Shown here: one piece after another, positions 12,403 to 57,169 of the stretch
Layout of the letters: every line of letters starts with the position of its first letter
Position numbering within the stretch: the stretch's first letter is position 1
Assembly: GCA_022708465.1 (NCBI GenBank)
Contig: JAKIYQ010000002.1
Coordinates: forward strand, 160 to 64,159
Reading direction: 5' to 3'
Source of the DNA: Bacteroidota bacterium
GTDB taxonomy: Bacteria > Bacteroidota > Bacteroidia > Bacteroidales > Paludibacteraceae
DNA length: 64,000 nucleotides
Notes under the pieces: generated by a model
What the model was told of the DNA's origin: nothing
The model's input: the letters and a program-made list of their open reading frames with translations, nothing else
Databases searched by the model: none
Position numbers and translations under genes: made by a program

Positions 12403-12409
12403 TTGCAGG

Positions 12410-12483
12410 TGGGCCCACTTGGACTTGAACCAAGGACCTGCGGGTTATGAGTCCGATGCTCTAACCAACTGAGCTATAGGCCC
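12410..12483 (-). tRNA. tRNA with CAT anticodon (elongator Met, or Ile2 if lysidinylated)
   Basis: Reverse complement is GGGCCTATAGCTCAGTTGGTTAGAGCATCGGACTCATAACCCGCAGGTCCTTGGTTCAAGTCCAAGTGGGCCCA. The G1-C72 pair argues for an elongator. Anticodon loop is CTCATAA. The anticodon stem has only 3 Watson-Crick pairs. Confidence 0.85.
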
Positions 12484-12530: not shown

Positions 12531-12558
12531 ATTTTTTTTTTATTAAGTTACAAAGAAA

Positions 12559-13152
12559 ATGATAAAAAATATTGTGTTTGACATGGGTGGTGTGCTGATT
12601 GATTTGGATATGCAGGCGTGCGTAAAATCGTTTAAAGATTTAGGTTTTGAGAATGTTGAGGAGTATATTAGTCCATACACTCAGTCTGGTTTTATGTTGG
12701 ATTTTGAGAGAGGGTTGATGTCTAATGCGGATTTCTGTAATGATGTAAGAAAACTATCCGGAAAGAATGTTTCTGACAAACAAATAGAAAACGCTTGGTT
12801 TCAGTTTTTATTGGATATTCCTGTCGAGAAGCTGAAACTTATAAAGAATTTGCGCGAGAAGTATATGATATACCTTCTTAGCAATACAAATTGGATACAC
12901 TTTCCAGTTATGTTAGAACGTTATAATCTTGATAAATATTTTGATAAGTTTTATTTGTCTTGTGAAGTGCATTATACAAAACCGGATCCTCGGATATTTG
13001 AGTATATGATAAACGATGCCGGAATAAAAGCAGAAGAGACCTTGTTTATTGATGACGGACCTGCAAATATTAAGACGGCAGAATCTCTCGGATTTCAAAC
13101 TCATTTGGCTAAGGCAAATGAGAGTCTGGAGTTTTTGAACGCCATAATTTAA
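12559..13152 (+). CDS. HAD-family hydrolase (subfamily IA)
   Basis: FDMGGVLI motif I (DxG variant), LLSNT motif II and FIDDGPANI motif IV-like. Confidence 0.8.
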   Translation: MIKNIVFDMGGVLIDLDMQACVKSFKDLGFENVEEYISPYTQSGFMLDFERGLMSNADFCNDVRKLSGKNVSDKQIENAWFQFLLDIPVEKLKLIKNLREKYMIYLLSNTNWIHFPVMLERYNLDKYFDKFYLSCEVHYTKPDPRIFEYMINDAGIKAEETLFIDDGPANIKTAESLGFQTHLAKANESLEFLNAII

Positions 13153-24425: not shown

Positions 24426-25016
24426 ATGGATATGGATAATTATGAAAAAATAATATCTGATGAGGTTAAGAAAACAATAGAAGTTTTACGCGCCGGCGGA
24501 ATTATACTATATCCTACCGATACTGTTTGGGGAATTGGATGTGATGCAACAAATGCAGAGGCTGTTGAAAAAATATATAAAATAAAGCAGCGTGATGATT
24601 CCAAATCAATGTTAGTTATTACTGATGGAATGGCCAGAATTCAGAGTTACGTTGACGAAATCCCTGACATAGCATGGGATCTCGCAGAACTTGCAGATAA
24701 ACCGATTACTATAATTTACCCTCAAGCAAAAAATCTAGCTGCGAATCTTATTTCTGATGATGGTAGCATTGGAATAAGAATAAGTTCTGAAAAGTTTTCA
24801 AAGCAATTATGTGCTGCATTTAGACGTCCAATTGTTTCGACTTCTGCAAATATTAGCGGTGAACCCTCACCTGAATGTTTTGCCGAAATATCCGACATAA
24901 TAAAAGATCAAATGGATTATATTGTTCAATATCGTCAAGACGATACTCAAAAAAAACAGGCATCATCTATAATTAAGTTGAAAAAAAATGGTACTTTTGT
25001 CATCCTTAGACACTAA
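24426..25016 (+). CDS. tsaC: L-threonylcarbamoyladenylate synthase (TsaC/YrdC type)
   Basis: YPTDTVWGIGCD, KxR (KQR) and SxN (STSANISGE) catalytic tetrad all present. Confidence 0.85.
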   Translation: MDMDNYEKIISDEVKKTIEVLRAGGIILYPTDTVWGIGCDATNAEAVEKIYKIKQRDDSKSMLVITDGMARIQSYVDEIPDIAWDLAELADKPITIIYPQAKNLAANLISDDGSIGIRISSEKFSKQLCAAFRRPIVSTSANISGEPSPECFAEISDIIKDQMDYIVQYRQDDTQKKQASSIIKLKKNGTFVILRH

Positions 25017-25021
25017 TCGAT

Positions 25022-26419
25022 TTGAATGTTAAATATCAATTATATAAGTATCTCATAGCTGATGCGATTTCCGCATTTGTAACTTGGGTTATTTTCTATG
25101 TTTTTAGACGAATAGAGGTTGACTTATCTACGTTCAGCCTCAATTTGTTTATGCCTCAGTATAATGCTAGAATCCTGTTCCCTTTAGTACCAATATTTTG
25201 GTTGTTTATGTATTGGCTGTCAGGATATTACGGTGAAGTATGTTTTAAATCGAGGTTGTCTGAGTTCTGGACAACTCTTACATCAACATTATTCGGTACA
25301 TTAATATTATTTTTTACAATTGTAATTGATGATCCTGTATCCGATTATACCATCTTTTACACATCATATCTGCTTCTATTTGGAATGCAATTTACATTTA
25401 CGTACTTTACACGTTTATGCATTACCACAATTACGCAGAAAAACATGCAAAAAAGGCGAATAGGATTTAATACTCTAATAATTGGAGTGGGAGAAAAAGC
25501 TGTAAAGTTGCAATCTGATTTAGATTCTATGCCTAAATCACTAGGCTTTAACGTTGTAGGTTTTGCTTATTCCAATTCTGACAGTAAAGTTTGTGTGGAC
25601 TCAAAATCAGTACTTGGTAATATTAATGATGTAGAGAATCTATTGTTGAATTACAAAATCACAGTAGTTATTATTGCAATAGATAGAGTAAGTGAGTCTG
25701 AAATATATGATTTGATGCATATTTTGTGTGGCAAATCGGTAAAAATCAAACTTATACCAAGTAGATATGAATTGTTGACAGGTAGTGTTAAATTGACTAA
25801 TATCTATGGCATTCCAATGGTTGATTTAACAGAGGTTGTTATGCCTGAATGGCAGAAGAATGTAAAAAGATTAACCGATATTGTAATATCCGCCATAGTA
25901 CTGATTGTGTTTAGTCCTGTGTATGCAATAATAGCATTAAAAATTTTCAAAAAACCTATATACAAGCAAGAACGTATCGGCTTACATGGTAAACCATTTA
26001 TGATGTATAAGTTTAGAACAATGGTTATTGATGCTGAAAATGGGGAGGCTTTGTTATCATCAAAAGATGATCCGAGAATTATTAAGATAGGGCATTTTTT
26101 GAGGAAATACAGATTAGACGAATTACCTCAATTTTTTAATGTACTTAAGGGTGATATGTCTTTGGTAGGACCTCGTCCCGAGCGAGAATATTTTATTAAT
26201 CAAATAGTAAAAGATGCTCCATATTATTATATGTTGAGTAATGTTCGTCCGGGTCTGACTTCGTGGGGAATGGTTAAGTTTGGATATGCTCAAACTGTTG
26301 AACAAATGATTGAGCGTGCAAATTATGATGTTCTTTATTTGGAAAATATGTCAATAATTGTTGATTGTAAAATTGCGATATATACAATTAAGACAATTAT
26401 TACAGGGAAAGGGATTTAA
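25022..26419 (+). CDS. polyprenyl-phosphate glycosyl-1-phosphate transferase (WbaP/bacterial sugar transferase family)
   Basis: N-terminal TM block, central Rossmann-like region and C-terminal ...MYKFRTM...DELPQFFNVLKGDMSLVGPRP signature. Apparent TTG start; no in-frame ATG nearby. Confidence 0.85.
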   Translation: MNVKYQLYKYLIADAISAFVTWVIFYVFRRIEVDLSTFSLNLFMPQYNARILFPLVPIFWLFMYWLSGYYGEVCFKSRLSEFWTTLTSTLFGTLILFFTIVIDDPVSDYTIFYTSYLLLFGMQFTFTYFTRLCITTITQKNMQKRRIGFNTLIIGVGEKAVKLQSDLDSMPKSLGFNVVGFAYSNSDSKVCVDSKSVLGNINDVENLLLNYKITVVIIAIDRVSESEIYDLMHILCGKSVKIKLIPSRYELLTGSVKLTNIYGIPMVDLTEVVMPEWQKNVKRLTDIVISAIVLIVFSPVYAIIALKIFKKPIYKQERIGLHGKPFMMYKFRTMVIDAENGEALLSSKDDPRIIKIGHFLRKYRLDELPQFFNVLKGDMSLVGPRPEREYFINQIVKDAPYYYMLSNVRPGLTSWGMVKFGYAQTVEQMIERANYDVLYLENMSIIVDCKIAIYTIKTIITGKGI

Positions 26420-55115: not shown

Positions 55116-55705
55116 TCAAATGAAGTCTAATTTCAGATCCTTAAATAATTTTCTTAATTCATGATTTTTTTCAGCCATGTAGCGTGCTTTCTCTTTTGAT
55201 GAGGTTGGCAATACTGATTGTTGCTCCATTAGCTCGGTGCTAATTGCAATAGTATCATTATCAAGCGCATCCGCAAGGTATTTGTGTAGAGTAGGTATTA
55301 ATTTTTTAACCTCCGAGTCGACAATGCTATTAGGAACCTTTATTGTTATATTTTTTTCTTCATCAACCAACGGGATTTGCTTAAACAGATAGTGTAACTT
55401 TGGTTGTTCCGATATCTTGTTCGGAAAAGAATACCATGCTGCAATAAGTTCGTCAGTAGTAAATTCTTTTAAACGTATTTCTTCTATTTTCTTTTGTTCC
55501 GGCTTATTTTTACTCTCTTGTCTGTTGAGTAAACCACGTAACGACATTATAGGAGCAACTTTAATATCTGATGCAGATGGTGCTGCCTCATTCGTCTTGT
55601 TGATTTGTGGACTGATATTTGATGCAACAGACGTAGCTTTGGTGAATTCGGAAGGGAAGAAAGGAAGTAACGGATTTTTCTTTCTTAGTCGCCTAATTTT
55701 TTTTT
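55116..55705 (-). CDS. dnaX: DNA polymerase III tau-specific C-terminal region, in the +1 frame relative to upstream dnaX
   Basis: Hand translation of the +1 frame from the A10 run is stop-free: KKKIRRLRKKNPLLPFFPSEFTKATSVASNISPQINKTNEAAPSASDIKVAPIMSLRG.... It joins ORF 55116..55547 (EFTTDELIAAWYSF...KDLKLDFI). Confidence 0.7.
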
Positions 55706-56799
55706 TGCCCCGATAGTTGGCACAATCGGATTAACATTAGTTCAACAGCTAAACGCTTATTTTTGCTCTGCTTATAAGAAATATCACAATCATTACAAAC
55801 TTCTAAGGCATCATACAAAAAATCGACCGAACATCTTGAAGCTTGTTCTATGTATTTGTCTCTGATGCTGGAACCGACTTCTAGAAGATCTGCCGTACTT
55901 TTGTCTTTGCAAACTAAAGTATCACGCAAATGTTCTGACAAACCGGTAACATAATTATGTGCATCAAATCCTCTGTTTAAAATTTCGTTGAAAAGTAATA
56001 AGGCAGCAGGAACATTGTTTGTTAAGAATAAATCAATCGAACGGAAATAATAATCGTAATCAAGTATGTTTAGATTCTCAATTACACTATGATAGTCGAC
56101 TTTTGAGCCGCAGAAACTTACAACTTGGTCGAATGTAGAAAGTGCATCTCTCATACCTCCATCAGATTTCAAGGCTATAACATTTAAAGCTTCGTCATCT
56201 ATTTCAACTCCTTCTTTGGATGCGATGTCTTTTAAATGCGCAACTGTATCCTTTACACTGATGCGATTAAAATCATAAATCTGACAACGAGATAATATAG
56301 TAGCAATTACCTTGTGCTTTTCGGTAGTTGCTAAGATGAAAATAGCGTATGATGGCGGTTCTTCCAAGGTCTTCAAAAAGGCATTAAAAGCAGATGATGT
56401 AAGCATGTGAACCTCATCAATAATGTATACGCTGTATTTACCTATTTGTGGCGGGATTCTAACCTGATCTGTCAAATTTCTTATATCGTCAACACTATTG
56501 TTTGATGCGGCATCTAACTCGTGAATATTGAAAGATCTGCCATCAGCAAATGCTTTGCAAGATTCGCATTCACCACAAGCTTCTCCGTCTTTTGTAGGAT
56601 TAAAACAATTAATGGTTTTTGCGAAAATGCGTGCAGTAGTAGTCTTTCCAACTCCTCTCGAACCGCAAAATAAGTATGCATGAGCTAATTGTCCGCTTTT
56701 AATTGCATTCTTTAATGTAGTGACGAGTGGCGATTGGCCAACAACAGTGTCAAATGTTATAGGTCTGTATTTTCGTGCCGATACCAAGTAATTATTCAT
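55693..56799 (-). CDS. dnaX: DNA polymerase III subunit gamma/tau, domains I-III (368-aa 0-frame product)
   Basis: MNNYLVSARKYRP start, Walker A GSRGVGKTT, zinc module CGECESC, IIDEVHMLT (Walker B) and SRC motif (LSRCQ). ORF-track start 56904 trimmed to ATG 56799. Confidence 0.92.
   Translation of the reverse strand: MNNYLVSARKYRPITFDTVVGQSPLVTTLKNAIKSGQLAHAYLFCGSRGVGKTTTARIFAKTINCFNPTKDGEACGECESCKAFADGRSFNIHELDAASNNSVDDIRNLTDQVRIPPQIGKYSVYIIDEVHMLTSSAFNAFLKTLEEPPSYAIFILATTEKHKVIATILSRCQIYDFNRISVKDTVAHLKDIASKEGVEIDDEALNVIALKSDGGMRDALSTFDQVVSFCGSKVDYHSVIENLNILDYDYYFRSIDLFLTNNVPAALLLFNEILNRGFDAHNYVTGLSEHLRDTLVCKDKSTADLLEVGSSIRDKYIEQASRCSVDFLYDALEVCNDCDISYKQSKNKRLAVELMLIRLCQLSGQKKN
55697..55706 (-). 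other. A10 homopolymer (slippery/recoding or error-prone site) at the end of the dnaX 0 frame
   Basis: Minus strand reads CAA AAA AAA AAT TAG. The 0 frame stops at 55695-55693. The -1 frame reads KLGD-stop. The +1 frame is open for 193 codons. Confidence 0.9.
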
Positions 56800-56860: not shown

Positions 56861-57169
56861 ATGAAAAAAAGTTTACAAACGATATTAAAAATTGTTTTCA
56901 ACAAATACTTGATTGTATTAGTTTTGTTTGCCGTAATTATGGTAACAAGTGAAGATCATAATCTGCTCCATCGTTATAAAAATAAGAAAACAATTGAATC
57001 GCTTGAGAAACAAATATCTTACTACAAAAACGAGACTGCTAAAAACAAAGAGAAATTGGATGAACTTCGTTCGGATAGCAGTAATCTTGAAAAATATGCA
57101 AGAGAGCGATATCAAATGAAGAAAGTTGATGAAGATGTATATGTAATAATACAAGAAAATGAAAAATAA
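56861..57169 (+). CDS. septum formation initiator family protein (FtsB/DivIC-like)
   Basis: 102 aa with an N-terminal TM segment then a coiled coil (LEKQISYYKNETAKNKEKLDELRSD) and ...YARERYQMKK. Confidence 0.7.
   Translation: MKKSLQTILKIVFNKYLIVLVLFAVIMVTSEDHNLLHRYKNKKTIESLEKQISYYKNETAKNKEKLDELRSDSSNLEKYARERYQMKKVDEDVYVIIQENEK

Follow-up and report, generated by a model that had tools for sequence, protein, structure and literature searches.

Recoding at a run of adenines is a described feature of dnaX, the gene encoding the gamma and tau subunits of the bacterial clamp loader, and the present work concerns such a run in the dnaX gene of a Bacteroidota bacterium of the family Paludibacteraceae (GenBank assembly GCA_022708465.1, contig JAKIYQ010000002.1, positions 160 to 64,159 of the forward strand; the whole stretch of 64,000 nucleotides is referred to as the window). 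The closest described genes are those of Antonov, Coakley, Atkins, Baranov and Borodovsky (2013, NAR 41:6514, PMC3711429), in which tau depends on recoding at a poly-A tract of 7-10 A's at the gamma/tau junction. Their set comprised 17 dnaX genes from 12 genera, nine with a run of ten adenines (A10), and included Flavobacterium (F. johnsoniae, F. psychrophilum), Cytophaga hutchinsonii, Capnocytophaga, Chlorobi (Chlorobium) and Coraliomargarita. All of these genes require a -1 shift, which was attributed to transcriptional realignment on bioinformatic evidence only. The exchanged roles of gamma and tau are also discussed in the 2016 review by Atkins (PMC5009743); beyond these two publications, we found neither experimental work on dnaX slippage in Bacteroidota nor a described +1 arrangement in the literature.

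Other systems provide partial parallels. Slippage in the dnaX gene of Thermus thermophilus is experimentally established (Larsen et al. 2000, PNAS 97:1683, as cited in PMC1088944 and PMC5009743), and these citing articles give a share of about 50% full-length product for its A9 run. In an IS630 element of Roseiflexus, slippage with the loss of one nucleotide is stimulated by a nascent stem-loop (Penno et al. 2015, PNAS, as cited in PMC5009743), and in insect endosymbionts frameshifts at poly(A) tracts can be conserved between species (PMC3017870).

We consider it probable that the dnaX gene of the window is a genuine and evolutionarily maintained recoding site, at which slippage on an A10 run feeds the synthesis of tau. 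A preliminary description of the window had raised this inverted arrangement, with gamma in the genomic frame and tau supplied by slippage. The arrangement itself holds up as real, its novelty does not, as it was published in 2013 (PMC3711429). The window gene is a rare variant of +1 polarity in a new family, to which the present analysis adds a phylum-wide lability of the tau frame, a tight control of run length and a hairpin adjoining the run.

Architecture of the dnaX locus

The gene is encoded on the minus strand, and the features on which the argument rests are the following.

55693..56799, minus strand: 0-frame open reading frame (ORF) of dnaX, 368-amino-acid (aa) gamma-like product with AAA+ domains I-III (ORF translation, Pfam, phmmer)
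55697..55706, minus strand: slippery A10 run (T10 in the template strand), codons 365-368, at the domain III/IV (gamma/tau) boundary (sequence)
55709..55730, minus strand: predicted nascent-RNA hairpin, 6+2 bp, UCCGAU.GU....AC.AUCGGG (folding, covariation)
55116..55697, minus strand: +1-frame stretch of 193 codons that encodes the tau-specific part, ATT at 55697-55695, TGA at 55118-55116 (translation, NF011531, pN/pS)
55119..55466, minus strand: C-terminal globular domain of tau, 116 aa, where relatives have PF28557/DUF8439 (Pfam of relatives, AF2 model)
55685..55687, minus strand: TAA stop of the -1 frame, which ends in KKKLGD (sequence)

The 0 frame begins at the ATG at 56799 with MNNYLVSARKYRP... 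and contains the Walker A motif GSRGVGKTT. Its product is assigned to PF13177 (E 9e-46), PF22608 and PF12169, which together span residues 22-365 and correspond to AAA+ domain I, the lid and DnaX domain III, and the N-terminal product also matches E. coli DnaX structures (phmmer, E 1e-63). At the run the 0 frame reads CAA AAA AAA AAT TAG and the product ends in ...LCQLSGQKKN; the run is exactly 10 nt long, and the TAG (55695-55693) lies one codon beyond it. The +1 frame, which reads KKKIRRLRKKNPLLPFFPSEF... from inside the run, takes in the separately listed ORF 55116-55547 and closes with the conserved DnaX C-terminal motif before the TGA. Counted from the run, it continues for 196 codons without a stop, which is beyond chance because off-frame stops elsewhere in the surveyed dnaX genes are met after a median of 10 codons.

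Deleting one A from the run yields a fused protein of 560 aa that scores 763.7 bits against NF011531, the equivalog model for Bacteroidota DnaX (cutoff 685), and 434.9 against TIGR02397 (cutoff 250). Adding one A yields a product of 371 aa, as the -1 frame stops after 4 codons (KKKLGD-TAA). By its Pfam domains, its NCBIfam equivalog and its similarity to the E. coli structures, the gene is identified as encoding the DnaX (gamma/tau) clamp-loader ATPase.

The preliminary description had placed the split of dnaX in the A10 run, exactly at the gamma/tau boundary, and coordinates, frames and the end of the Pfam domains at residue 365 bear this out. Its further observations are likewise confirmed: the +1 frame is long and merges with the downstream ORF (196 codons from the run, 193 from the ATT), this ORF resembles the tau C-terminus of Bacteroidota DnaX in that the fused protein exceeds the NF011531 cutoff, and the 0 and -1 frames give only the two gamma-like products of 368 and 371 aa. 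The expectation of a tau of about 560 aa after the loss of one A or a +1 slip was correct for A9 (560 aa), except that this was held to be the only route, and A12 also gives tau. The predicted junction peptide ...GQKKIRR... is thus that of A9, to which we add ...GQKKKIRR... for A12.

The A10 run within the species and in sister species

The split gene is not confined to one assembly. The 368-aa product of the window is identical to a database protein (P0121; MBP7210693.1, "MAG: ... Paludibacteraceae bacterium", MAG denoting a metagenome-assembled genome) that represents 49 contigs from NCBI, JGI, ENA and Logan, and at least 14 further alleles in the same 90% cluster differ by 1-8 residues and all end in ...QLSGQKKN at 368 aa. 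The DNA of an independent strain assembly (L006; loci used in the comparison carry L numbers) likewise has both the A10 run and the 0-frame stop, with substitutions nearby. When the fused protein was searched against 5.8 billion proteins, the best 120 matches contained one 368-aa match with 99% identity, representing 23 sequences, and three matches of 372-375 aa with 75% identity; the other strong matches among these 120 were full-length and at most 58% identical, and none of the 120 was an in-frame allele of the dnaX of this clade.

Three sister species (L001-L005, L007 and L008/L009; 8 loci from at least 8 independent samples) also have A10 with tau in the +1 frame. They share 75% aa identity with the window, and dS among the sister species themselves is about 1. 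Their sequence at the run is GAG CAA AAA AAA AAT CAG/CAA GAT AAG GA.., with the 0-frame stop 5-8 codons past the run, a -1 frame that stops after KKKSG or KKKSR, and a +1 frame that is open for about 197 codons, to ...KLRDLCRKLNLDFA. Across L001-L010, the A10 run is found at the equivalent codon; in L010, whose protein is 58% identical to that of the window, tau is in frame. The A10 run is thus conserved.

A general unreliability of homopolymers in the window was considered and rejected. Runs of ten A's are in themselves nothing unusual at 34% GC, and the window has two of at least 10 nt in its 64 kb, the second being an intergenic T10 (12532-12541). Among 24 pairs of adjacent ORFs on the same strand, however, only that of dnaX is split by a homopolymer. 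A second suspect pair, 24426-25016 and 25022-26419, proved to be two separate genes, the second with a TTG start.

Coding character of the +1 frame

The region downstream of the run evolves as a protein-coding sequence. Between the sister-species loci L007 and L008, the proportions of nonsynonymous and synonymous differences in the +1 frame are pN 0.12 and pS 0.58 (dN/dS 0.12 at dS 1.1), and between L001 and L007 they are pN 0.19 and pS 0.76; for the N-terminal part of dnaX, dN/dS among the sister species is 0.02-0.03. These substitution patterns indicate that the +1-frame region is under purifying selection and is a live coding region.

The peptide immediately past the run is conserved (RRLRKKNPLLPFFP, RIRNRRKILPFFP) and reads RRLRKKNPLLPFFPS in the window, RIRNRRKILPFFPS in L001 and RIRRRAKRALLPF in L014. 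No conserved start codon was found downstream of the run when the window was compared with its relatives: the methionine of the downstream ORF at 55547 is not conserved, and the starts called in relatives vary (proteins of 123, 86 and 167 aa). A non-conserved methionine and differing start calls, combined with a conserved peptide directly behind the run, argue for read-through from the run and against separate initiation or decay.

Run length and tau frame across the Bacteroidota

The preliminary description had proposed comparing run length and frame among orthologues, and this comparison was made for dnaX in 80 species representatives (set 1) and 80 metagenome contigs (set 2) of the Bacteroidota. 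A run of A9-A13 at the domain III/IV boundary is present in 111 of the 160 loci (about 70%), namely 60 + 5 in set 1, with the window clade and L010 included, and 46 in set 2, and its length is overwhelmingly exactly A10. The frame of tau, in counts that leave out the window clade and L010, is 0 as in Thermus at 79 loci, -1 at 23 and +1 at 4 (L017, L031, L082 and L148), to which the window clade adds a further +1 lineage. In the surveyed samples, loci with tau in -1 thus outnumber those with tau in +1 about sixfold. All out-of-frame ORFs terminate in the conserved DnaX C-terminal motif. A neighbour-joining tree with Fitch parsimony requires at least 12 changes of frame state, with at least four origins of the +1 state.

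Quick stops in both non-tau frames, which the preliminary description took as the mark of a programmed site, follow the same rule throughout the phylum. In the two non-tau frames the distance from run to stop has a median of 2 codons, with 87% within 5 codons, compared to a median of 10 codons and 34% within 5 for off-frame controls in the same genes.

Most lineages (L011-L170, at codons ~350-387) keep the run at exactly 10 whichever frame encodes tau, so changes of frame cannot be simple changes of run length, and a second change must restore A10. Other lengths are A11 in L014 and L011 and A13 in L046. L014 (Paludibacteraceae MAG47), the closest species representative with 72% identity, has A11 at L014:3591-3601 with tau in -1; it shares the post-run peptide of the window clade (RIRRRAKRALLPF), and a single A in the genome sets it apart from an arrangement of the window type. 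L014 and the window both need A9 or A12 transcripts for tau. The A10 run is retained even in GC-rich dnaX genes that prefer AAG (L076 and 14 others), although AAA is used for 0 of the 17 other lysine codons in L076. Therefore, selection acts on the nucleotides and not on the KKK peptide, and the constancy of run length suggests selection for a particular slippage efficiency. No conserved flanking motif was found around the run in the surveyed loci beyond a weak G at position -4.

A hairpin adjoining the run

The predicted hairpin of the window (55730-55709) ends 2 nt 5' of the A run. It is preserved in the sister clade, where two of its pairs have changed on both sides in a compensatory manner. 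In a 15-sequence alignment of a Bacteroidales subgroup, covariation of the paired positions is 0.335, compared to 0.193 in shuffled alignments (1/500) and 0.08-0.17 for slid partners. With a hairpin defined as a fold of ≤-5 kcal/mol ending within 3 nt of the run, 49% of the 65 run-bearing loci of set 1 have one, as opposed to 12.5% of control windows in the same genes (Fisher 2e-12), and 26 of the 46 run-bearing loci of set 2 have one as well. All 8 +1 loci, from four lineages, possess the hairpin, and so do about half of the loci in the 0 and -1 classes. The hairpin had at first seemed peculiar to the +1 class, as 7 of 7 such loci of set 1 have it, but this idea was dropped in view of the share of about 50% in the other two classes, which the replication sample also shows. 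That the hairpin stimulates slippage is a hypothesis drawn from its covariation and enrichment and from a geometry like that of the nascent stem-loop in the Roseiflexus IS element; a description of a hairpin abutting the dnaX run was not found in the literature.

Proposed transcriptional slippage and alternative explanations

The reading that follows goes beyond what is observed, namely how the locus is built and conserved, that its +1 frame is under selection, how the tau frames are distributed among lineages, and that the hairpin covaries and is enriched. On the T10 template, RNA polymerase would hold a hybrid of rA:dT pairs only, which could realign and so give mRNAs with A runs of varied length. 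The templated A10 mRNA would encode the 368-aa gamma-like clamp-loader subunit with domains I-III, and an A11 mRNA the 371-aa gamma-like variant. In A9 or A12 mRNAs, the downstream 193 codons would come into frame and yield a tau of 560-561 aa, whose linker and C-terminal domain presumably tether polymerase and helicase. The small hairpin in the nascent RNA, ending 2 nt ahead of the run, may stimulate realignment. Seen across the phylum, the design may be called "frame-agnostic", with a conserved A10, close stops in both non-tau frames and tau in 0, -1 or rarely +1. If the pool of mRNAs varies in run length, one would expect the pattern seen here, in which tau can be reached from one conserved homopolymer whichever of the three frames encodes it and the two remaining frames close early; a published criterion takes both directions of frameshift within one gene family as a sign of transcriptional realignment (Antonov 2013, PMC3711429). 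Comparative data support the inverted arrangement through the purifying selection on the +1 frame, the quick non-tau stops and the A10 of orthologues that have tau in frame 0, -1 or +1.

We tentatively extend this to a composite cassette shared across the Bacteroidota, although we would not put it at even odds. The hairpin and an A10 held at ten would let the polymerase feed three frames at set ratios, so that indels could move tau from frame to frame without loss of function. Synonymous sites are saturated between the window and the sister clade, which within this extended reading makes the state with tau out of frame a long-lived one; tau in the lineage of the window would long have been made only from minority A9 or A12 transcripts, possibly through a hairpin-driven deletion of a single nucleotide.

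Several points weigh against slippage as the source of tau. According to published work, slippage of bacterial polymerases on runs of A or T mostly inserts nucleotides, each further insertion being rarer than the last. Such a bias would account for the excess of the -1 arrangement, which needs one extra A, over the +1 arrangement, and it would oblige the window gene to make tau through two added A's or the less common loss of one, that is, to make an essential protein from minority transcripts. The small share of the +1 state (about 4% of run-bearing loci) is in keeping with such a cost. In addition, a ribosomal shift on the A run can give the identical protein, and a second intact dnaX may lie beyond the 64-kb window. 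The hairpin lies in coding sequence, gives modest z-scores when sequences are folded singly, and is shared by the other frame classes. Slippage itself, its transcriptional nature, the ratio of its products and the role of the hairpin are what we infer from the DNA.

Among the alternatives, translational recoding survives best, and we judge it unlikely. Here the mRNA would be a faithful A10 copy, and some ribosomes would shift +1 (or -2), or slide on the AAA codons, into the tau frame. Inside the run, a tRNA-Lys paired with AAA can advance by one base and pair again, which would create the same QKKIRR junction, poly-A is slippery for ribosomes as it is for polymerases (Antonov 2013, PMC3711429), and E. 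coli dnaX undergoes ribosomal frameshifting at an A-rich heptamer. However, that heptamer (A_AAA_AAG) is absent at the run of the window, which continues with T and so offers no AAG, and no conserved stimulator is apparent. The flanks are unconserved, and the 60 nt downstream fold no better than shuffled sequences (z -0.10 in the window, +0.83 in L001), for which reason downstream structure was rejected as a ribosomal stimulator. The 0-frame stop adjoins the run in the window but follows 5-8 codons later in the sister species; therefore, a +1 shift stimulated by the stop is not conserved. Moreover, a directional ribosomal signal fails to explain why orthologues have A10 with tau in 0, -1 and +1. 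The end of the hairpin 1-2 nt upstream of the run would place it inside the mRNA channel of the ribosome, yet would fit the exit channel of RNA polymerase.

A fission of the gene, leaving a gamma-only DnaX and a downstream ORF that is a decaying remnant or supplies the C-terminal domain in trans, is very improbable. Short DnaX proteins do exist in some bacteria, and gene callers indeed report two ORFs, the second with its own ATG (55547 in the window). In all members of the clade, however, the +1 frame can be read on directly from the run, conservation at the peptide level covers the ~50 codons ahead of the first ATG, and the purifying selection on this frame and the variable start calls also speak against fission. 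Covalent linkage is needed to tether the polymerase to the clamp loader, as established for E. coli tau.

Phase variation at the DNA level has a still slighter chance of being correct. Replication slippage would then switch individual genomes from A10 to A9 or A12 and back, and a genomic subpopulation would supply tau, for which the differing run lengths among related lineages (A11 in L014 and L011, A13 in L046) and the 12 or more frame changes in evolution could be cited. Yet tau is essential, and cells of the majority genotype, A10, must still make it; A10 is present in every assembly and allele of the species seen, and run length is held at 10 across the phylum whichever frame has tau. Finally, the alternative put forward in the preliminary description, a homopolymer error in sequencing or assembly of a true A9 and an ordinary single-ORF dnaX, is effectively refuted even though homopolymers are a classic source of indel errors and removal of one A restores a canonical 560-aa DnaX, since it conflicts with the identical product on 49 contigs, with the further alleles (at least 15 in all ending in QKKN at 368 aa), with the A10 in the DNA of L006 and of the 8 sister-species loci from different samples, and with the lack of any other homopolymer-associated split in the window and of an in-frame allele among the best 120 matches.

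Identity of the tau extension

The long product of the slippage proposed here is called tau mainly because of its position and the full-length NCBIfam equivalog. By sequence, the 193-aa tau-specific region has no match in the PDB. The AlphaFold2 (AF2) model of its last 116 residues has a pLDDT of 78, and Foldseek found no significant match to it (best E 0.06); the top weak matches include DnaA domain I (4tps_D, prob 0.99, TMt 0.67) and DciA (8a3v, 7ykm), both of them helicase-interacting domains. DnaA domain I, DciA and tau domain V share the KH type II fold (PMC8216460), and the model thus hints that the C-terminus of Bacteroidota DnaX (Pfam DUF8439) belongs to this fold group. In E. coli, tau domain V is the part that binds Pol III alpha. 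For alignment, the C-terminal 116 aa were compared with the C-terminal segments of homologues; an alignment of the 193 aa with full-length homologues, in which they were scattered over the N-terminal domain, was discarded.

In two DnaX homologues from ENA, P0002 (719 aa) and P0004 (667 aa), an internal stretch of ~60-110 residues is repeated in tandem (e.g. SKEGITAEPEALNVIALKADGG... twice), which is probably a misassembly or a recent duplication.

Neighbouring genes and other homopolymers in the window

A DivIC/FtsB-like septation gene adjoins dnaX in the window (56861-57169, plus strand), in L001 (L001:4704-5012) and in L010 (L010:1006-1302). It is divergent and upstream of dnaX in the window and L010, and downstream on the same strand in the sister clade.

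The intergenic T10 at 12532-12541 lies between a tRNA-Met gene (12408-12483, minus strand) and an ORF that starts at 12559 (plus strand), 18 nt upstream of its ATG. It might influence a promoter or leader, or act as a slippage-prone or phase-variable tract. A TsaC/YrdC-like gene (24426-25016) has two A8 runs within its final 70 nt (24949-24956 and 24981-24988, plus strand); its frame is intact, and the gene that follows starts with TTG at 25022.

Implications

Tau is an essential organiser of the bacterial replisome. If a free-living lineage has just the dispensable short form in its standard frame and depends entirely on polymerase infidelity for tau, transcription "errors" can become a fixed and selected part of the expression of a core gene. 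Annotation routinely divides such dnaX genes into a truncated gene and a hypothetical ORF, as is the case for the window gene and its relatives in public data, and filters for frameshifts may take them for pseudogenes or assembly errors. The presence of tau in frames 0, -1 and +1 at one conserved A10 across a phylum amounts to a natural experiment on the slippage spectrum of RNA polymerase, insertion versus deletion, and the coexistence of these frames is relevant to the question of which gamma:tau ratios are tolerable for a cell. As a candidate stimulator, the hairpin adjoining the run can be tested directly.

Comparison with known recoding systems

The window gene resembles those of Antonov et al. 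(2013) in having an A10 at the gamma/tau boundary, a 0-frame stop just after it and the tau C-terminus in another frame. Unlike those genes, in which tau lies in -1 and needs one extra A, it has tau in +1 and would reach it via A9 or A12; the 2013 set includes neither Paludibacteraceae nor a hairpin abutting the run.

With dnaX of Thermus it shares a run of 9-10 A's at the equivalent junction and near stops in both alternative frames, and Thermus likewise obtains two products from one gene. The roles are reversed, however: in Thermus the templated frame encodes tau and slippage gives gamma, whereas in the window the templated frame encodes gamma and slippage would be needed for the essential tau. 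Slippage in Thermus has been demonstrated by experiment, whereas the case of the window is known from its sequence.

E. coli dnaX offers the same gene and domain boundary and an A-rich shift site of lysine codons. There, tau is the zero-frame product, and a translational -1 shift employs A_AAA_AAG, an upstream Shine-Dalgarno-like element and a downstream stem-loop. The window lacks these stimulators, with no AAG, no significant downstream structure and unconserved flanks.

As in the IS630 element of Roseiflexus, a hairpin stands just 5' of the slip motif in the window, and the loss of one nucleotide would yield tau here. The Roseiflexus motif, however, is heteropolymeric (T5C5) and strictly hairpin-dependent, whereas the A10 of the window should slip alone.

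Finally, the locus recalls the poly(A) rescue in endosymbionts (Tamas et al. 2008; Blochmannia, PMC3017870), where an out-of-frame gene is functional through polymerase infidelity at an A10-type tract. The endosymbiont cases are scattered mutations in decaying AT-rich genomes. In contrast, the tract of the window is conserved in position, occurs throughout the phylum, lies at a domain boundary and yields a useful short product.

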